NCBI GenBank assembly: GCA_964016885.1
Contig: CAXHJY010001009.1
Location: forward strand, 1-60,680
Source of the DNA: Eledone cirrhosa
Lineage: Eukaryota
Direction: 5' to 3'
DNA length: 60,680 bases
Positions within the stretch are counted from its first letter, which is position 1; the number at the start of each line of letters is the position of its first letter. The notes beneath the pieces are model-generated. The model saw only the letters and a program-made list of their open reading frames with translations, had not been told where the DNA came from and did not search any database. A program made the position numbers and the translations under genes. Below are positions 4,361 through 60,680 of the stretch, piece by piece.

Positions 4361-5139
4361 TATTTTTCAAATTTTTGATTGTCAACATTGAGGACGAAGT
4401 GTCTTTTATGCCGGGAAATACAATATATATATATGTAGTCTATATATATATATATATAGACTGTATAGTGCATATATATATATATGATAAATATTGGTGA
4501 TAGGAAGGGCATCCAGCTGTCAGAAACCTGCGAAAGAAAGGGTTGGGCAGACCCTTCTGATGTGTAAAGGACATGACAATCACTTTAGTATTGGTGCCAC
4601 AACAAAATACACCCAGTTGAATGAGTGACCATATGTAACTGAGGGGTGGACCCCAACCCTACCTTGGTCTTTGAAGTCAACCTGAAAAACCCTTGCTAGC
4701 AACGAAATTGGACATTAAAGGATGATGAGCTGTGACATCACAGTGTTCAACCTGTTTCAGCCATACCTTTGGACAGCATTATATATGGTCTATATATATT
4801 GGACAATATTTAATATTGTGTATATAGAAGTTTTGACAACGGGGTCATAAAATAAAGCACCAGTAATACACTGGGATAATTGCTGGCCTTGTGCCAAAAG
4901 TAGAAATAATTATATATACATATGTACACACACACACTGACAAACATGTATATTTATATACAATGTTCGGCTGAAGAGTTCATAGGCGGACCAAGTTACT
5001 CTCATGGAATGAGACAATGTATACACACAAATATATACTTATACATACGTATACAAACAAATATATATTTTAAAGTAAAGTCATACAGCGTAGTGTAATA
5101 TCATGTTTTCAATTCTTAGCAAGGGAGGTACATTGTGTC

Positions 5140-5615
5140 TATAGTAAGACGCCTTACGCCCCCCTGTCGGATAATGGACCAGGCCTAGTTGTCTCCCTCT
5201 GGTTGAGAACACTATTTAAGTAAGCAGCAGTATTACTTTCTCAGACAGCCACGGGAAAGCAGACGGTATACACGCCACAGAAAACAGCCTCTGTATCACG
5301 AAACGATAAACAGCCCTCGGGAACAGCAAACACCACAATACCTTTGTAATTGTAATACGCTCCCTTCACTACAACTGGATCACGTATATATTTGGTATGT
5401 TTCATTTGTAATATAATAAACACATATAAACAAAATAAACATCACCATTATTTACATTGTTAAATATAACTCTCGTTGTGGTTATTGTCTTGTTTACGGA
5501 CACACCCCACTCACTTTGTTATAATTCTCACTTACAAAAATGGTAAATAAACGAGGGACCTTCCCTCACGTCTATGTCGATAAACAATCCAACTAGGATA
5601 CATCATTTTACCACA
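5140..5615 (+). repeat. 5' LTR
   Basis: TATAGTAAGAC...TTTACCACA. About 7 substitutions and 2 single-base indels versus the 3' LTR (by-eye count). Confidence 0.95.
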
Positions 5616-5629: not shown

Positions 5630-6268
5630 AAGAATTTTACGCAGCCTTTTTATTCAGTTGAACTTCACTGTTATTACCACGTTGCCAACCTTTTCGCAAC
5701 TTACGAAAATACAAAAAAAAAGACAGAGAAATATAAAGTGTTTATACCGTAGTGACAAGGTATACAAACCAGCCAAAAAATGTTCCAAGATGGCGTTGCT
5801 TTCCTTCCCCGTTTTGTAATTTTCCGCCAGGACAGGGACATTTTGAATTGCGTGTGTGTTCCATATTTGATCAAAGGAAAAAAAAATGTTTTGTGAACAT
5901 TACTGCCCCGCAGGGGATATACATGCCTTACTTTTTTTCTAAGGGATTTTTAGCCACAGGCTACCTATTGTTGATATCCAACGTGGATATATTCTAAGAC
6001 AAACATTTTTTTTTCTCTTTTTCACGGGTTATTTGATTTGGCCTGCCCATTGAAGCAACACAAGGGGACAGACGTTGAAGGAAAATTTTTCTTTTTTTTA
6101 AATATATATATGTATTTTATGTATTTTTCCTATTTCCTAATGTTTTGAATGTCTGTTTCTTTTTGACCTTTCATTTTTTTTCCATTTTGGGTGTTTGCTT
6201 TTCCCTGTACGAGGGAACATTAATTGCTGTTTATATATATATATTTTTTAAATTTTAAACGTTTCACA

Positions 6269-48681: not shown

Positions 48682-51600
48682 TGGTACCATGAACGTAGGC
48701 ACCTTATAAGGCCGCTCTAACAAGGTTGTAGAATTGCTTGAACGTAAGGAGGTTGATGTTTGCTGTATCCAAGGGACCAGGTGGAGGGGCGGGTCTGCTA
48801 GATTCATTGTGGGTAAAAAACGTTGCTATAAGCTTTTCTGGGTGGGAAATGACAATGGGATAGGTGGGGTAGGAATCATGTTAGCAGAAAAATGGGTGGA
48901 TAAGATAGTAGATGTAAATAGAGTGAATGACAGAATAATTAAAATAAGACTTGTTCTAAACAGAACTACTGTGACAGTAATATCTGCATACGCGCCCCAA
49001 TCCGGTCTGCCTGGCGCTATAAAAGACAGATTCTATGAGACACTGATGCTCACTACCTCCCAAATAACCAACAGTGACTATATAATTATTGCTGGCGACC
49101 TAAATGGCCACGTTGGACAACATTGTGACGGCTATGACGGAATCCACGAAGGCTATGGGTTTGGTACTAGAAACGAGGAAGGCTCCTGGAATTCTGTGAT
49201 GCAAACAACCTAACTATCTGTAACACTAACTTCAAAAAACGAGACAATCACTTGATCACCTACAGATCAGGGGAACATACCAGCCAGGTAGATTATATCC
49301 TTACCAGAAGACGTGACAGAGTGTCTGTTGTAAACACTAAATCCCTCCCCCATGAAGAATGCACCTCCCAACATAGACTGATAATTAGCGACCTCATAGT
49401 CAGGATGAGACGTACTAGACAACAGAAGAGGACTATCCTCAGGAGAAAAATATGGAAGCTAAAGGATCCCACAGCCAGAAATAAATTTCAAAGCATATTA
49501 CTTGATGCTTTCGACAGTAAGGAAGAGCAATTAGAGTCGTACAAGGTAGAGGAACAGTGGGAATTACTGAAAGCAAACCTGATGATGGCGGCAGACGAAT
49601 TCTGTAGGCCGGAGGAGAGTAACATGGTGGTGGAACAGTAAGGTGGAGGGGTCAATCAAGGCCAAAATGCAGGCTTGGGAAGCATGGGGGAAGTAGAGAA
49701 GACTATCAAGTGGCCAGGAGGGAAGCTAGGAGACAAGTGTACTTCGCAAGAAGGGAAGCAGAGGAAAGAAAGTTCAAGCATGTTCTACAACGCGAGGACC
49801 AAAAACGTGAGGTGTTCAGGATTGCTAGGCAATGTGTCAAGGAAAACCATGATATTGTCGGGGAGAAGTGTGTGCTTAACGATGATGGCATACTTGCCAT
49901 CACCGACGCTGATAAGAAGGTAGCTTGGAAGTGTCACTACGAAAGGCTACTAAATGAGAATAAATCGGAGAAAGACAGTCTCCCCCACATCGACCCAATA
50001 GAGGGACCAGTAGTGTTAGTCGAAGGTAGTATAATAAGTAAGGCAATCAAAGATATGAAGACGGGTAAGGCGGCTGGGCCTTCGGAAATAGTTGCTGAGA
50101 TGCTGAAAGCCTCTGGAACAGTGGGACACACCATGGTCACCCGGATAGTTAACCAAGTCATACAGAATCGGGTTGTTCCGAAGGACTGGCGTAGCAGCAT
50201 CATCGTTAACTGCTACAAGGGTAAAGGAGATGCCCTAGATAGGAGTAACTATAGAGGCATTAAATTAATCGACCAGGTCATGAAGGTCACGGAAAAAGTA
50301 ATAGCGCAACTAATCAGAGAGAGAATTGATGTAGATGAAATGCAGTTCGGGTTTGTGTCAGGCAAAAGTACCACAGACGCTCTTTTCATTGTACGACAAC
50401 TACAGGAGAAGTACCTAGCTAAAAGTAAACCCCTATACTTAGCTTTTGTCGACTTGGAGAAAGCCTTGGACAGAGTCCCCCGTTCCATTATCTGGTGGGC
50501 TCTTAGAAAACTAGGTGTTGACGAATGGCTTGTGAGAGCTATACAAGCCATGTATAAAGAAACAGTCAGCAAGGTTAGAATTAACAACGAATATAGTGAA
50601 GAGTTTAGCCTAAAAGTTGGTGTCCATCAGGGCTCTGTTATTAGCCCCCTACTATTTATTGCCCTTCAGGCTATAACAGAGGAGTTCAAGACCAGCTGCC
50701 CATGGGAACTCCTATACGCAGATGATCTAATGCTCATAGCTGAATCAATGGCCGAGCTAGAGAAGAAATTCCAAACATGGAAGCACGGCCTAGAATCAAA
50801 AGGACTTAAAATTAACCTGGCTAAGACTAAAGTTCTAGTTTGTAGGAAAGAAAATAAGGCGCCGGTCCCTTCCAGGAAATGGCCATGCTCAGTGTGTAGG
50901 AAAGGCGTAGGTAGAAACTCCATTTTATGTCCCAAATGCAAAGTATGGGTACATAAAAGATGTAGTGGGATCACAGGTAAGCTAACTAAGAACACAGATT
51001 TTACATGTGGCCGGTGCTCTGGTGCAATAAGTAGCAGCAAGTGCCCACAAAATACTAGCTCTTTCAATTGCGCAGAGGGTTCTATAGAAATAGTGGACAG
51101 CTTCCGTTACCTGGGTGACAAAATCAGCAGTGGTGGAGGGTGCTCTGAAAGTACAGTAGCTAGAGTCAGAACTGGATGGAAAAAGTTCAGAGAGCTTATA
51201 CCACTATTAGCCGCTAAAGGGTTCTCCCTAAAAATGAAAGGCAGGTTGTATGATGCCTGCATCGAACAGCAATGTTGCATGGCAGTGAGACCTGGGCATT
51301 GTGTGCAGAGGATATACGCAGACTAGAGAGGAACGAAGCTTGCATGCTCCGCTGGATGTGTAATAGTAATATACGTGAACGGCAAAGCATAAACGAACTA
51401 AGGAAAAAATTAGAAATAAGAGGGATCAGATGTTGTTTACTCGAGAGAAGGCTACGTTGGTATGGTCACGTGATGCGCATGAAAGCCGACAGCTGTATAA
51501 CAAAGTGCAGGGCAATAAAGATAGATGGTAGCCACGGAGTAGGCAGACCCAGAAAAACCTGGGACTAGCTGATAAATTCCGACCTCACACACACCTCTCC

Positions 51601-52288: not shown

Positions 52289-54207
52289 CTAGCAGAAGTG
52301 CTCGGGGCTCGGCCTCTTCATTTTCCACCAATGGCAGCAAACGTGTTGTTACAAAAGTTCATGCTTTGTGAAAACAGAGGGGGCTAAAATCATTAGGCCT
52401 CGTCATGAAGCGGTATGAGTACAAAGCCATACATGAAACAGTTTTAGATGTCGCAGCAGTGGGCTCGTTTGGTTTGCACTGAGGAATGCCGAAATGGTAG
52501 CCGTCTTTTCCGTATGCAAAAAGAAGGGGATACTGCAGGGCGTCGTAGGAACGATGTGTCTCATTAATACGTTGAAGACCACTGTCACGGCTTTGAAGAA
52601 CTATGTCTCGCTTATTGTGCTGTTCACCATGGAGAAATACAGCCACTTTATTGCACGAAGGAGCGTTATAACGGCGTGCGTGCTCTCCAGAAGGTCTTTT
52701 GTCAGCATCGATGACAATGGTGAAGTTTGGTGAAGGAGCTGTTGTGCTCATGAAGCATGTTTTGCAGACTGAGCAGCACGTCCCTGTCAAAGTTGTCAGC
52801 GTCATTGTTTGCAGGTGGTGGAATAACGCCAAACCGCACATCAACTTGCCTACTGTAGTTCGAAATAAAGTAAATTTGAAGGAACGAAGGCTTGCAATTT
52901 TGTAGTGGCTGGAGCGACCCAATAAGATGGTACACCTGCCCCTGGACCTTGAAAGTAGGCATCCAACCACTTTCTCTGACAACGTTAGCCCCGAAAGAAG
53001 TCATCTGAAACGCACAATTGTATTTCCCGATGATCTGAAGGAATTTGGATGACCTTGAGGTATAACCAGTCAGTAGTTCCTTCAAAGGCTCTGGCGGTTC
53101 CGGAAGAGGGGGCAAGGTGACCTTACCATTTAAGCAGCACATTGCAGGTGGCTCCCCAGCCCACTTTGTAGCATAGCAATTGAAGCGCATCTCGCCTATA
53201 TTTATGTCAGAGCGCATCGAGTAATTAACGTTTTGCTCATACTTGAAAGCCCGTAGGTGCCAGTAAGGGCTGTTGGGGCTCGTCACACCGCGTGCAGCTT
53301 CTTGCCGTCGACTGTTACGCTTGAACGTAGAACATTGGTCGTGTGGTTGGTGGGAAGGTCTGGCAGCAATAGCAGAAGCAACATTTGCAATGCTAATGGA
53401 CCGCCCGTCTGCATCTTCAGAAGCCATGGAAGTAGTCATAGCCGCAGCGTTCGTAGGAAGGCGAGCCGTCCGTTGTTTTAAACGTTCCAAAGACCTGGAA
53501 GCAGCATTAGTCGCAGCGTTTCTAGCCAGGCGCTTCGACCTTTGTTCACGGCTCTCTGAAGCCCTGGAAGAAGCCTGGTATAAAGCCATTTTGGCTAGGC
53601 GTGCGGTGCTCTGTTGGAAACTTTCAGCGGCTCGACATTCTGCTGAACGTAAGGCTGTCTGTGAAAGTCTTGAAGCATTTTCCTCAGAGGACTCGTTTGC
53701 TATAGTAGCCTTTTGCGCCACTGCTGACGCGGTATGTCGACTGAAGCGACTTCTCTTTTTAGGTGGCATTTTATGTCCAAAAGAAAGGGTGAAAGTTACT
53801 TCTACAGAAAAATTGACTTTGAAAGTCTACTGTCTGTTTATGAATATTGTTATTGTTGTTGTTATACAAATGTTAGTAAGTAAATGGGTATCGAAAAATA
53901 AAGGGTGAAAGTTACTTCAACATAAAAATTGATTTTGAAAGTATAAGGCTGATAATTGAATGTAAAAAGATTGATAAGAAAGCCCCCCCCCCCCCCCCCC
54001 CAAAAAAAAAATGTACAGGTATTTGTATGTATGTGTGTATTTTTATGTCGAAAAGAAAGGGTTAAAGTTACTTCTACAGAAAAATATAGTTTGAAAGTGT
54101 AAGGCCGATGTGTGTGTAAATTAAGTGACAGGTATTTGTATGTATGTGTGTATGAAAGTGTAAGGCCGATGTGTGTGTAAATTAAGTGACATGTATTTGT
54201 ATGTATG

Positions 54208-54239
<32 letters not shown>

Positions 54240-54888
54240 TGTATGTATGTATGTATGTATGTATTAAAGGTTGAAAGTTACTTCAACATAAAAATTGACT
54301 TTGAAAGTATAAGGCTGATAATTGAATGTAAAAAGATTGATAAGAAAAGCCCCCCAAAAAAATTTACAGGTATTTATATGTATGTGTGTATTTTCATGTC
54401 GAAAATAAAGGGTTAAAGTTAGTTATACAGAAAAATTTAGTTTATGCTATTGTTATTTCTAAAACAAACTGTGTATGCGTTGATTGATTGAAATTCCCGC
54501 GTTCCTGTTTCTATGACGTCAATCGTAACCATACCAACATATATGTGTGTGTATGCACCCACATATATGTGTGTATATGTTTTTTTTTTAATGTTTCTCT
54601 TTTTCACAAACACTTATAAGAGAAGGTAGCAATTTTAAGGGGAGGTGATGAATCGGAGTAGATATAGGAAACGCATATCATATGAGAGAGGAGAAATCAT
54701 CGATTGTTGAAATAAATCGATTTTTCCGTAATTGTGGCATTTTTTACCCAATAAGATCGCACATGACACAAGTTAGAATATTTGTAAACATTCTGCTTAA
54801 TTATTCATTCAATATTTTTGGAATTGTGTAAATGTATAAAATTGAAATATACATACAGACACAAAAATCTACCTTTTATACATAATGA
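52289..54888 (-). mobile_element. Helitron internal-deletion derivative carrying the N-terminal part of RepHel
   Basis: CTAG end at 52289 and TC start near 54888. ORFs 52702-53769 and 52359-52982 give CCLNGKV, YNCAFQMTSFG, FKVQGQVYHLIGSL, HARRYNAP and HRSYDALQYPLLF. No HUH or helicase motifs are seen. Confidence 0.9.
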
Positions 54889-55139
54889 TAATTTCTCTCT
54901 CTATTTCTATATATATTATTTCTCTATATATATATATAATTTATATATATATATATATAATTTATATATATATATATATATAATTTATATATATATATAT
55001 ATATATAATTTACATATATATATATATAATTCTATATATATATATACATGTATATATATATATATTTCTCTCTATATATATACATATATGTATATATATA
55101 TATATATTATTATTATGTAATAAACAACATAAGGCAATT

Positions 55140-55201
55140 ATTCCATTTACCAGTGGTTTCTTAAAAGCAAAAGGTTTTGCTTTCAATCCTCAGAATGAAA
55201 A
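55140..55201 (-). ncRNA. Type I hammerhead ribozyme (downstream pLTR)
   Basis: UUUUCAUU-CUGAGGA-UUGAAAGCAAAA(cc)UUUUGCUUUUAA-GAAA-CC(acu)GG-UA^-AAUGGAA. Predicted cleavage between 55148 and 55147. Confidence 0.85.
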
Positions 55202-55409
55202 ATCCTGGTTTGTTTATTGAATATGGATTCTAAAAACGAAAATGCAATCTATATGAAAGTGAGGCTGGAAAAGGGAGAAGGAAAGGAAAAATAAAATAAA
55301 ATAAAACTACACATGCAAACACACACAAAAAAACCCAAAAGCATACTTACACACACACACATATATACACATATAATTTGCACGCATACACATATACACA
55401 TACACATAC

Positions 55410-55466
<57 letters not shown>

Positions 55467-55567
55467 CACATACATACACATATATATATATAAAGAGCGT
55501 ACACCTACACACACATACACATATATATACACACATATACACATACATATATTCATACATACACACG

Positions 55568-55601
<34 letters not shown>

Positions 55602-55623
55602 TATACATACACATGTACATATC

Positions 55624-55663
<40 letters not shown>

Positions 55664-56108
55664 CATATACACACATATACACATATACATACACACACAC
55701 ACACATGTGTGTGTACAAGCCTACACATACACACACACATATATATACACACACATATACATACATTCACACAAACATACAACGTACATACATACATACA
55801 CATACATGAATGCACTCCACTACATATTAACACACGCAAATAAATATAAGAAAAAAATATATAAATAATATTAACAAATATTTGACAGCGATACATGCCC
55901 CAGCTAACAGGACAGACACGCGTGGTAAGTAATACACACATAAGCGCATATACATACGTTCGAAATAGTAAACACATACACACACTCTCACACATAAATA
56001 TACATATACAAATACATAAACACGTACATACACATACATACGCAAACACGTACACGTATACAATATAAACACACACATGTATATGTAATTATATACACAC
56101 ACACACAC

Positions 56109-56153
<45 letters not shown>

Positions 56154-56433
56154 CAAAATATAAAAATATAAACGCACACACACATATAAATACGTAAACA
56201 CACATATACATACATAGCTAAACAATTATACACATGCAAATACGTATATATCAAAAGAACGCACAACCAAATACAAACACACACACATATATACACACAC
56301 ACACACCCACACACAAACCCACACATACATAAAAATAAATAAAAACACACGCAACATATACATACATACACATACATATACATATATACATATATACATA
56401 TACATATATATATATACACATACATATACACAA

Positions 56434-56467
<34 letters not shown>

Positions 56468-56607
56468 ACGTACACATACACACATGCATACACATACACA
56501 CACACATATACATGTGTGTATGTGTAAAGCTCAGTATTAGATAAGACAAATGAACCTTACATAAACGTATATATAGTAGTAAAGTAATAAAGCCATACAA
56601 GGCAATT

Positions 56608-56669
56608 AATCCATTCACCAGAGGTTTCTTAAAAGCAAAAAAAGTTTCCTTCAATCTTCAGAATGAAAT
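56608..56669 (-). ncRNA. Diverged hammerhead copy (GUG at the cleavage site)
   Basis: UUUCAUU-CUGAAGA-weakened stem II-GAAA-CC(ucu)GG-UG-AAUGGA. Confidence 0.6.
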
Positions 56670-57062
56670 ATACAAATATATACACACATACAGACACGCA
56701 CACACACATATATATATATACATATATATATATATATGTACATATATATATATATATATATATACAGACATATATACATACACACATATATACACACACA
56801 TACATATACATACATACATACACATATATATACATACACAAACATACACGTACGCATATACATATATACACACAAAAATACATACACATACACATAGGTA
56901 TGTGAAGGGCAAAACAAAAAGAATATATGGGGTGGGGGGCCTAGAGGAGGTAAAAATATAAAGGGAGGTAAGGGAGAAAAAAATATTTTTTAAAAACAAG
57001 AGTACAGAAGGTAGAAGCAGCAAAATAAAAGCCGTAGCAAAAGTAAAGAGCAGAGAAGGAGT

Positions 57063-59196
57063 TCAAGGCGGTTGATTTATCGTAGGAGTGTCAATCCAGT
57101 TACAGATCAGATGCGATTTCAGATGAGGACAGCATCTGAAGATCTCAGTCTTAGAGTTAAGGCAAGCGGAAGTGTCTCTCAAGTTTAGCAAAATCCTATA
57201 CTTTTCTGTGGTACACAAAGAACAATTCTTTGTGCCCCTTTGGTACTCCCTCGAATGGTCTAATATAGACCAATCAATAGAGTACGGGATATTACTATCC
57301 TTGAGATCCCATACCTTACTTGCGAGGGCCGTTGATGTTCGTTTATCTGAGTGTTTAAAAGAAGCGACATGTGAGTAAAATCTGGTTTTAAACCTGTCCT
57401 GGGTCATACCGACATATCGCTCGCTTCTGGCTGGCTGGTTGTTGATAACTGGCGTTATTTTAGCCTCATAAACGACAGATTTTGTTTTACATTTACCCTG
57501 CAATGGGCATTCATCCGGCTTCCTGCAACTGCATCCTGGATTTATCCTCGTACGGTTTGAACTGGTGATTTTGGATTTCATGGATGGACAACAAGAGTAG
57601 CTGATCTTAACTACATTCCTATTAAAAATCTTATAATATCTATGAATAGGAGGAAAATGTTTGTCTAATAGTTCAAGGAATTTCCTTCCTACATTAGTTT
57701 TGACATTTAGAGAGAAGGGGGGTGTGAACCAAATAATCTTCCTTTTCCTGTTATTATGGTTAGTTTTAGGGGGGGGGAATAGGTAAATAAGAAATATTTT
57801 CTGTAAAACCGCTGTTCTTAAGGGCTTTATTATAATAAGGGGCGGCTTTATTAAAAATGTCTATAGACGAAGATAAAGTAGAAATCCTACGGCTAATGTT
57901 AGGAATAAGATTATTAAAAACTATAGGGGGATGGCAAGACTCTTTGTGTATATACCTAAGATTTTCATTAGGTTTATGATAGGGTTTAAAAGAGGCAGTA
58001 AGTAGATCAAGATTAATATCAAGAAAGTTAGCATTAGTAAGGTTCGTATCTATAGTAATTTTAAGGTTAAGATTAGCAAAGGTACTAATTAAATCTTTAC
58101 GGAATTTATCAAGATTATGGCCATTGGTGGTATGAGAAACTGCTAATCCGTCATCACGGTATAAACCGATATTATGGGACGGAAATTTCTCTTTGAGTGT
58201 GTGGAGAAGGAATAATCCTACTAAGTCGCACACATCCGCACTGTCATAAGAACCCATTGCAACATCGAAAGAGTTTTCAGGGTTTGACTTTTTAACCCAA
58301 ATCTTATCATTAGTAAAAAGTAAAGTTTTTCTGGCATGAAAGATAATGTCCTCTTCTAATTTGGAGATATTAATGAAGGGTCTTGCAAAATCTAAGGCTT
58401 TAGTTAATAAGGAAACGGTAATAGAAGGGTAAAAATCGACAATATCAAATTGCGTAAATCTACACTTATTTTTACCTTGTATATTATTGAACCAAGAAAT
58501 AACAGAGGAAGTATTTAGCCACTGTGAAAGGACAGTGTTAGTTCTAATTTGGATAATTATTTTTCTTAAGATTTTCTTACTAGCAAGGCCAACCTCGGAT
58601 TTAGCCGGGTTAATCAGTCTACAACTAGGTCGATTAGTAAAGTCCAATTTATGGTCTTTAAGGGTAATATATGCTTTACGCTTAGCTAAGCTTTCAATCC
58701 GGTTATCTATTTGTAAAGAACTAGCTAGTTCTTTAGCTTCTTTATTGATAGTATTGTAGCTATTATTATTAGTTAATTGATATTTATTGGTAATACTATT
58801 AGTTAAAAGTTGGTTATACAAATTACTATTAACTTCAAAGAGGTTTTTGGTTTTATCAGAAAGAACAAAAGTGTTTGTAGAATTTCTAAAATTAGAGATA
58901 TCGTGAGAAAGTTTAGTTTGAAAATTATTATTGTACTTACGAAATTTGATATCACTAATTAGATTAACGAGGTCTAATTCGAAGTTGGCCATGTCTTTAA
59001 TTCTAGGTGGATATTTACGGGATTTAATGTCAAAATTATCTTTAGTATCAGCACTGAATAGTCCATCGTAAACCATTGCCTTCCATCTCATTCTTTTAAC
59101 GACTTGCTCGATTTTATCAATGAGGATTTTGGTGTATGTTGTGTTGGAAGGAGTGGGTATGTTTTTGATAGAATAATCCAAATCATAAAGGTCCAT
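57063..59196 (-). CDS. Penelope-like RT + GIY-YIG endonuclease (710 aa if one base is removed from the homopolymer at ~57769-57777)
   Basis: KDHK, CRLINPAKSE, FDIVDFYPSI, MGSYD, YRDDGL, FLDI, linker WFTPP, CSCRKPDECP, SVVY...YVGMT...RFYSH, CSLCTTEK. Confidence 0.9.
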
Positions 59197-59414
59197 GGTG
59201 TATGTTGGTTAAATTCCTGAAAACTGTAGAGTGCTCAACTAATCGGGCTGGAAAGTGCCAATCGTATATGTAATATCGAATATGCTGCGATCAATCCCGG
59301 TTGGAGCTGTATAAATGAAGTAATTCCATCGGAAAAGTCCAGGAAAAAAGAGTGCTCTATGTAAGCAACAGAGCTTAATTATTATTATTATGTAATAAAC
59401 AACATAAGGCAATT

Positions 59415-59476
59415 ATTCCATTTACCAGTGGTTTCTTAAAAGCAAAAGGTTTTGCTTTCAATCCTCAGAATGAAAA
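59415..59476 (-). ncRNA. Type I hammerhead ribozyme (upstream pLTR)
   Basis: Identical to 55140-55201 and 4275 bp away. Predicted cleavage between 59423 and 59422, about 225 nt before the ATG at 59196. Confidence 0.85.
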
Positions 59477-59684
59477 ATCCTGGTTTGTTTATTGAATATG
59501 GATTCTAAAAACGAAAATGCAATCTATATGAAAGTGAGGCTGGAAAAGGGAGAAGGAAAGGAAAAATAAAATAAAATAAAACTACACATGCAAACACACA
59601 CAAAAAAACCCAAAAGCATACTTACACACACACACATATATACACATATAATTTGCACGCATACACATATACACATACACATAC

Positions 59685-59757
<73 letters not shown>

Positions 59758-59858
59758 CACATACATACACATATATATATATAAAGAGCGTACACCTACA
59801 CACACATACACATATATATACACACATATACACATACATATATTCATACATACACACG

Positions 59859-59894
<36 letters not shown>

Positions 59895-60401
59895 TATACA
59901 TACACATGTACATATCCATACATATATATATATATATAGATATATATATACACATACATATACACACATATACACATATACATACACACACACACACATG
60001 TGTGTGTACAAGCCTACACATACACACACACATATATATACACACACATATACATACATTCACACAAACATACAACGTACATACATACATACACATACAT
60101 GAATGCACTCCACTACATATTAACACACGCAAATAAATATAAGAAAAAAATATATAAATAATATTAACAAATATTTGACAGCGATACATGCCCCAGCTAA
60201 CAGGACAGACACGCGTGGTAAGTAATACACACATAAGCGCATATACATACGTTCGAAATAGTAAACACATACACACACTCTCACACATAAATATACATAT
60301 ACAAATACATAAACACGTACATACACATACATACGCAAACACGTACACGTATACAATATAAACACACACATGTATATGTAATTATATACACACACACACA
60401 C

Positions 60402-60446
<45 letters not shown>

Positions 60447-60680
60447 CAAAATATAAAAATATAAACGCACACACACATATAAATACGTAAACACACATAT
60501 ACATACATAGCTAAACAATTATACACATGCAAATACGTATATATCAAAAGAACGCACAACCAAATACAAACACACACACATATATACACACACACACACC
60601 CACACACAAACCCACACATACATAAAAATAAATAAAAACACACGCAACATATACATACATACACATACATATACATATAT

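Follow-up and report, generated by a model that had tools for sequence, protein, structure and literature searches.

Penelope-like elements (PLEs) with hammerhead ribozymes in both flanking repeats, a short palindromic helix III and a dimer mode of cleavage were described by Cervera and de la Pena (2014; PMC4209133), who proposed, tentatively and without in vivo evidence, that the excised unit is ligated to a circle that would permit more-than-unit copying; the accessible text of that paper contains no copy-level test of repeat homogeneity. Octopus elements of the Hydra clade that carry hammerheads are also known (Craig et al., 2021, PMC8557442), and neither hammerheads in both repeats, nor dimers, nor the circle are new as such. 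Here we analyze a 60,680-nt stretch of DNA from Eledone cirrhosa (hereafter the window, which is the whole of contig CAXHJY010001009.1) that carries on its minus strand a Penelope-like retrotransposon with Hydra-clade motifs, apparently a recent insertion from a young and abundant family. New here are the many young copies of this family, from which a cut linear template can largely be ruled out and a single unit is seen to have been, in all appearance, copied twice per insertion; in the literature searched, mostly papers outside subscription, we found no test of repeat homogeneity or of a circle for a full-length PLE. The family makes a good test bed: its copies run into the thousands, some 40 gene-bearing insertions are nearly identical, 10 or more frames are intact, and the microsatellites serve as barcodes.

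Other groups of elements frame the comparison. In the accessible text on PAc, a Poseidon PLE of Anolis carolinensis (Frangieh et al., 2024, PMC11167929), two starts of reverse transcription past the hammerhead define the "tail" of an insertion, ribozyme-dead RNA was inserted normally in vitro, no RNA-seq ends were found at the cut site, and cleavage was protein-assisted and dispensable in vitro. Our element resembles PAc in its two probable starts and its AT-rich target (PAc extends both strands), but it belongs to a different clade, and its ATG lies 226 nt past the cut whereas the open reading frame (ORF) of PAc starts inside the ribozyme. Naiad PLEs, as far as their published description is accessible (PMC8557442), build the same tandem, tail and inverted structures without canonical hammerheads; like Chlamys they have an N-terminal endonuclease and a DKA motif, a combination absent from our element. 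Type I hammerheads also delimit the unit of the non-LTR (long terminal repeat) retrozymes, for which circular intermediates are proposed and a relation to PLE pseudo-LTRs is described in the accessible part of that report (bioRxiv 10.64898/2026.07.22.740005); unlike those short, non-coding and non-autonomous elements, the unit here is 4.3 kb long and has a 710-aa ORF.

Coordinates below are those of the window, and positions +n and -n are counted from the predicted upstream cut (+1 = 59422). A motif scan for a hammerhead core, stem II and GAAA on both strands of the window gave only three matches, at 59468, 56661 and 55193, all within the element. Two of them, at 59416-59475 and 55141-55200 on the minus strand, are identical to each other and are called hammerhead A: a CUGAGGA core (C3 at 59468 and 55193), a 7-bp stem I, an 11-12-bp stem II followed by GAAA, the near-palindrome ACCACUGGU and a GUA triplet at the cut. 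The predicted cuts, 59423/59422 and 55148/55147, enclose 4275 nt (59422-55148). An earlier sequence-only reading had named the CUGAGGA, GAAA and GUA core with its short stem III in both repeats, and the 4275-nt unit between two identical hammerheads; the scan bears out both. It had also counted two hammerheads, which is right for the identical A copies and misses the third, diverged GUG motif inside the unit at 56661. A 24-mer spanning stem III and the cut site has 4026 exact matches genome-wide versus 0 for its reversed control, and this count, together with the confinement of all three scan matches to the element, argues that the A motifs are not due to chance.

The direct repeats that hold these motifs are at least 1301 nt long and 98.5% identical (one mismatch and two microsatellite gaps), without any difference over the 358 nt counted from their 3' end. 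The upstream pseudo-LTR (59380-60680, minus strand), a partial second lap, runs off the contig end at 60680, and the matching part of the downstream one (55105-56387, minus strand) closes the insertion 43 nt past the cut, an end of the short class described below. We call the 3'-most unit of an arm lap 1 and the repeat upstream of it lap 2. The layout is that of an endonuclease-bearing (EN+) Penelope-like insertion, namely a partial tandem with pseudo-LTRs, an inverted 5'-truncated arm and a tail at one end; the inverted arm was seen in other insertions, the window copy stopping at the contig end.

Copies were mapped across the 3.0-Gb genome by k-mer anchoring. A 141-nt query returned 1181 candidates, the best 40 scored being all 100% identical, and the insertions mapped consist of two head-to-head arms. 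Their 3' ends fall into two classes, about +35 to +43 (30 of 53 sampled, one of which was followed only to +8) and about +107 to +115 (23 of 53), and 46 of the 53 run into TA repeats. Among 31 young two-arm insertions, 29 combine one short with one long end (binomial p=5e-7), and seven older two-arm insertions outside that count fit the same pattern. The stretch between the two end positions is the tail (59310-59379, minus strand), which in the window copy stands only behind the upstream hammerhead; at about 70 nt it is longer than the 30-40 nt given for Hydra elements in the accessible text of PMC8557442. Loose ends were also found at 59388 and 59310.

Thirteen arms, the window's included, are longer than one unit, the longest reaching about 1.9 units. 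Same-arm laps differ in 2 of 160 unique and 17 of 124 microsatellite blocks, and opposite arms of one insertion in 11 of 514 and 81 of 451, whereas different insertions differ in 14-18% of unique and 49-50% of microsatellite blocks. Alleles private to an insertion (absent from the other insertions among about 38 sampled) occur in both laps at 6 unique and 20 microsatellite blocks and are lap-specific at 2 and 17. In 7 of the 11 arms with variable blocks, no other sequence is as close to lap 2 as the arm's own lap 1; the window's copy falls outside these 7. Older pairs have aged: in 9 of 12 older loci (3 were dropped as the paired motif was not the mate), the repeats differ at 0-12 of 160 nt, always below the median difference to other loci and lowest of all in 6 of 9. 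Because same-arm laps differ in 2 of 160 blocks versus 14-18% between insertions, these comparisons show, as far as sequence can, that one unit is copied twice per insertion, and the variety of shared alleles from one insertion to the next implies that re-copying happens often. Within the sample, no insertion could be recognized as the parent of another.

The cut site itself bears on the template. We used a marker at +96 to +120 and examined 100 of the 214 loci carrying it; 72 continue into the ORF. Eleven of these gene-bearing copies start between +17 and +96, one starts at -2, and 60 pass the cut site, which makes 60 of the 61 that reach the upstream site. Genome-wide, 5' ends do not pile up there (44 matches, versus 27 and 123 in control windows just upstream and just downstream). 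Because of this read-through and the missing pile-up, the template carries an intact junction, either uncut or re-joined.

These data can be set against several ways of making a copy. The doubly cut, linear 4275-nt monomer could itself serve as template, by analogy with R2 elements and their 5' ribozyme, and one older gene-bearing copy (L158/L119; L158 lies in G000:C4 near 175143220) does begin no more than 2 nt from the predicted cut; every sampled 3' end, however, lies past the cut site, which with the read-through and the lack of accumulated ends largely refutes a cut, unjoined template and leaves it with hardly any probability. Repeats could also be alike because they descend from long homogeneous tandem masters, were later converted, or were evened out in assembly. 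The assembly does have a strand-biased homopolymer error (9 of 24 matches in reverse versus 0 of 22 in forward orientation, p=0.0016), and the window's contig stops inside a repeat. Yet none of the 46 ORF marker matches forms part of an array of three; in at least five insertions both repeats hold the private alleles of that insertion, which differ from case to case; divergence of up to 12 of 160 nt between older repeats speaks against efficient conversion; and polishing would be expected to pull towards common rather than private alleles. We regard this explanation of the homogeneity as improbable. Slightly less credible still is an antisense template transcribed from a bidirectional pseudo-LTR promoter, in which neither the ribozyme nor an intron would be read. 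It has been suggested for rotifer PLEs (PMC3846280, accessible text), and would accord with the retention of a candidate 86-nt intron in the pseudo-LTR (59540-59625 and 55265-55350, minus strand; GTAAGT donor, pyrimidine tract, CAG acceptor), whose tract remains pyrimidine across subfamilies and of which the genome holds 0 spliced-junction copies versus 2444 unspliced ones. Against it, sense RNA was the template in vitro, where two start sites matched the genomic tail (PMC11167929, accessible text), and the same two-end pattern is present in this family.

We lean, tentatively, towards new copies being made from uncut read-through RNA that is copied over more than one unit by switching between its repeated ends. 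The endonuclease would nick (TA)n on both strands and, by analogy with the anole PLE, the reverse transcriptase (RT) would enter just downstream of the ribozyme, at about +43 on one strand and about +113 on the other. From the two starts a pair of head-to-head arms would result, of which one has the tail and the other lacks it, and homology-guided switching would re-copy the same unit and renew the pseudo-LTR in each generation. With less weight, the ribozyme might cut only part of the RNA, as a dimer and perhaps protein-assisted, and might trim or regulate transcripts and not define the template; an internal hammerhead copy may have lost its cleavable triplet, since cutting at that point would break the RNA in two. 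In about nine short copies, read by eye, copying jumps back to somewhere between +203 and +274, so template switching does occur with this enzyme. At one locus (L042), a private single-nucleotide polymorphism (SNP) and two microsatellite alleles are common to lap 2 and the inverted arm and absent from lap 1, as expected if the template was a linear RNA whose two repeats differed slightly. Several observations weigh against copying from uncut RNA. The L042 signal amounts to one SNP, which could be an artefact of polishing or conversion, and differences confined to the upstream repeat are not enriched: among 209 three-way block comparisons, 184 agree, the odd one out is the opposite arm in 14, lap 1 in 6 and lap 2 in 2, and 3 differ throughout. 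There is no wall of 5' ends to mark where transcription begins; a cluster of six second-lap ends does lie at -122 to -129, but a start there is unsupported, 2188 of 2444 copies genome-wide passing that stretch. The second-lap ends of young copies are instead scattered over the whole unit, as a circle gives naturally. Of the 13 arms longer than one unit, eight, with the window's among them, stop at the short site; as their 3' end lacks the long start site, the gene could be passed on from them only by way of a switch or a circle. Finally, the in vitro work on PLEs concerns another clade, Poseidon.

A circle is a serious alternative to copying from uncut RNA, if one in which we place slightly less belief. 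The hammerheads would pair as a dimer and excise the 4275-nt unit, its ends would be joined, and RT starting from +43 or +113 would roll for up to about two laps. The re-joined junction would have the same sequence as the tandem in the genome. This fits the seamless passage across the cut site, the private alleles common to both repeats with lap 1 so often nearest to lap 2, the closeness of all nine usable older pairs and the absence of a start-site wall; it would also place the RT entry region behind the ORF, something that none of the linear copies found does twice. Features of the hammerheads, set out below, speak for it as well: a fold kept across subfamilies, an A:A dimer at the cofold minimum and an internal copy that is mostly GUG. 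On the other side stand the alleles missing from lap 1 in L042, the slight covariation of the hammerhead (two-sided change at only two pairs) and the window copy, which has four other pieces as close to its upstream repeat as its own downstream repeat. None of the 13 arms holds three hammerhead A motifs, a weak point in that only 3 got within reach of the third. In the accessible parts of the literature, metazoan PLE hammerheads cleave weakly in vitro (PMC4209133), and both the dispensability of cleavage in the anole PLE (PMC11167929) and the Naiads' building of the same structures without canonical hammerheads (PMC8557442) count against a circle. The circular RNA intermediate envisaged by the sequence-only reading is thus left divided: the repeat homogeneity it predicts is seen, but the anole ribozyme-dead RNA, the Naiads and L042 weigh against it. 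Somewhat less probable still is a fuller model in which a 4.3-kb ribozyme-made circle, copied for at most two laps, would renew identical pseudo-LTRs in each generation while the internal hammerhead would lend its catalytic strand to the downstream site. If true, the young family would be the first to back the 2014 circle model with genomic data at the level of single copies, and an autonomous animal retrotransposon would be moving through a ribozyme-made RNA circle.

Hammerhead A has the features of type I: core positions C3-A9 and G12-A15.1, U16.1, H17 and three helices. Rfam scans, a check that had been suggested for the window, matched no hammerhead model and gave only microsatellite-driven microRNA matches, so the assignment rests on motif, folding and the published Hydra-clade motifs. 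Cofolding predicts the A:A double hammerhead as the structure of lowest energy (-32.8 kcal/mol), which supports the earlier expectation of dimer-forming type I hammerheads in Penelope pseudo-LTRs; folding was less kind to the monomer, whose active fold (-11.9 kcal/mol) has a probability of only 0.017. Hammerhead A is accordingly expected to act in dimeric form. As single strands, A and the internal motif, B, have weak folding z-scores of -1.6 and -0.1, respectively. Among 47 distinct A variants, 95.7% of cells pair versus 95.4% in shuffles; N7 and loop II are free to vary, the 10.1-11.1 pair is broken in 8, and stem changes are mostly U-G/U-A and G-U/G-C, with two-sided changes at 2 pairs. The fold thus seems to be kept across subfamilies, with covariation as weak evidence. 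The palindromic 4-bp stem III and the lack of a G10.1-C11.1 pair closing stem II are shared with Hydra-clade hammerheads, in which that pair is often missing (PMC8557442, accessible text). As background to a possible translation of cut or circular RNA, ribozyme-linked cap-independent initiation has been reported for viral untranslated regions (UTRs) in the accessible part of another study (PMC13725137).

The internal hammerhead B (56610-56667, minus strand, core at 56661) lies in the 3' UTR, with CUGAAGA...GAAA intact and a GUG triplet. A G at position 17 is predicted to be uncleavable, and B indeed has G where H17 is required. B has 267 exact matches genome-wide and stands about 300-500 nt behind the stop codon in subfamilies with ORF identity of at least 91%; it was not seen at that place in 11 arms with ORF identity of 90.9% or less. 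The triplet is GUG save in three older arms. Because it runs into TA repeats about 40 nt beyond its site, B resembles a short copy that landed in the element's own 3' UTR. Its lost cleavable triplet hints at cutting in vivo, though it may reflect a single event, and such a silenced internal hammerhead would be a small natural hint that cleavage matters there. B could be a silenced passenger or an uncuttable dimer partner: a B:A double hammerhead is modeled at -25.3 kcal/mol with a 9-bp stem I, 4.7 kcal/mol above the cofold minimum. Selection on the B core could not be shown, the changes being too few for more than an estimate.

The gene lies within the unit, as the sequence-only reading had it, with RT and GIY-YIG-like parts; its frame, taken there as whole, is split in the window at a C9 run (57769-57777, minus strand) into an RT part of 476 aa from the ATG at 59196 (57766-59196, minus strand; RWK, DKT and YRDD motifs) and a linker and endonuclease part of 265 aa from stop to stop (57063-57860, minus strand; CxCX5C, GIY-YIG-like, CxxC...E and N...CxH). 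Most genomic copies have C8 and one 710-aa frame: among 46 genomic matches the run is C8 in 37, C9 in 8 and C10 in 1. All nine long runs are on contig minus strands, and deep short-read contigs span the run with one base fewer and no mismatch (records 6 and 14). Because C8 dominates, the long runs are strand-biased and the short-read contigs are one base shorter, the break is probably an assembly error. The same strand-biased overcall of G/C runs, at 57769-57777 and eight other loci, makes false-looking frameshifts. A sister copy encodes a 710-aa protein (P0001), and a 710-711-aa frame is present in 10 of 20 loci checked.

Read by eye, P0001 has RWK at residues 37-39, DKT (not DKG) at 114-116, CSCRKPDEC (CxCX5C), CSLC..E and N..CPH, with a C-terminal endonuclease and no CCHH. 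A homolog search gave 1342 matches among 7998 scored, with 41-58% identity among the 120 matches listed; Pfam gave no match on the element's protein (one homolog has a weak GIY-YIG match), and a PDB sequence search gave none for it either. The RT and GIY-YIG-like motifs match, again by eye, the published Hydra alignments. RWK, DKT, the CxCX5C linker and CxxC/CxH around E and N are as in the Hydra clade of C-terminal EN+ elements, as are the C-terminal endonuclease, the (TA)n target and a hammerhead in the pseudo-LTR, and the nearest named family is Hydra-1_Obim of Octopus bimaculoides, whose N-terminus and RT motifs match by eye (Craig et al., 2021, PMC8557442, accessible text); this nearest family agrees with the cephalopod genome that the sequence-only reading thought probable. 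Protein motifs, judged by eye, and hammerhead motifs suggest membership of the Hydra clade. In contrast to Hydra-1_Obim, listed there with "no pLTR", clear pseudo-LTR copies are present here, and the 4.3-kb unit exceeds the generally less than 3 kb of Hydra elements, a tendency and not a defining trait. The excess is due to the microsatellite-rich 3' UTR of about 1.9 kb (55201-57062, minus strand), full of (TA)n and (TG)n, which also distinguishes our element from the Hydra elements in that accessible text, as do the second, internal GUG hammerhead and the longer stem II.

A (TA)n-rich flank at the 3' end (54900-55104) represents the target. Older subfamilies show a further class of 3' ends at about +169, mostly followed by TA repeats (L075, L077, L098, L147, L156, L165, L179, L181 and L103), a sign, it seems, that the RT start site has moved in the course of time. 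The two inverted arms of an insertion commonly break off at almost the same place in the unit (L020, L022, L026, L029, L045 and L061), with paired stops such as 1792/1802, 1444/1448 and 561/569. In L084 a 183-bp piece (+24 to +213) that has no ribozyme is repeated five and a half times in tandem at 4422-5446 (minus strand), an array that reads as repeated re-copying of one short stretch, and L068 holds a 331-nt two-motif unit. A retrozyme-like mini family was considered for these two loci and rejected, L084 having no ribozyme and both looking like single jump-back events. L030 has at 5821-6023 two more distant hammerhead-like motifs with a different stem II in an inverted arrangement, probably from another PLE family.

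Elsewhere in the window, short direct repeats of 60-110 nt lie at 53733-54443, and two broken frames with an STPR repeat match occupy 52359-53826 (minus strand), where downstream motifs look like what we take to be the start of a Helitron replicase-helicase. A separate non-LTR retrotransposon remnant with RVT_1 and a PHD finger lies at 49623-51568 (plus strand).

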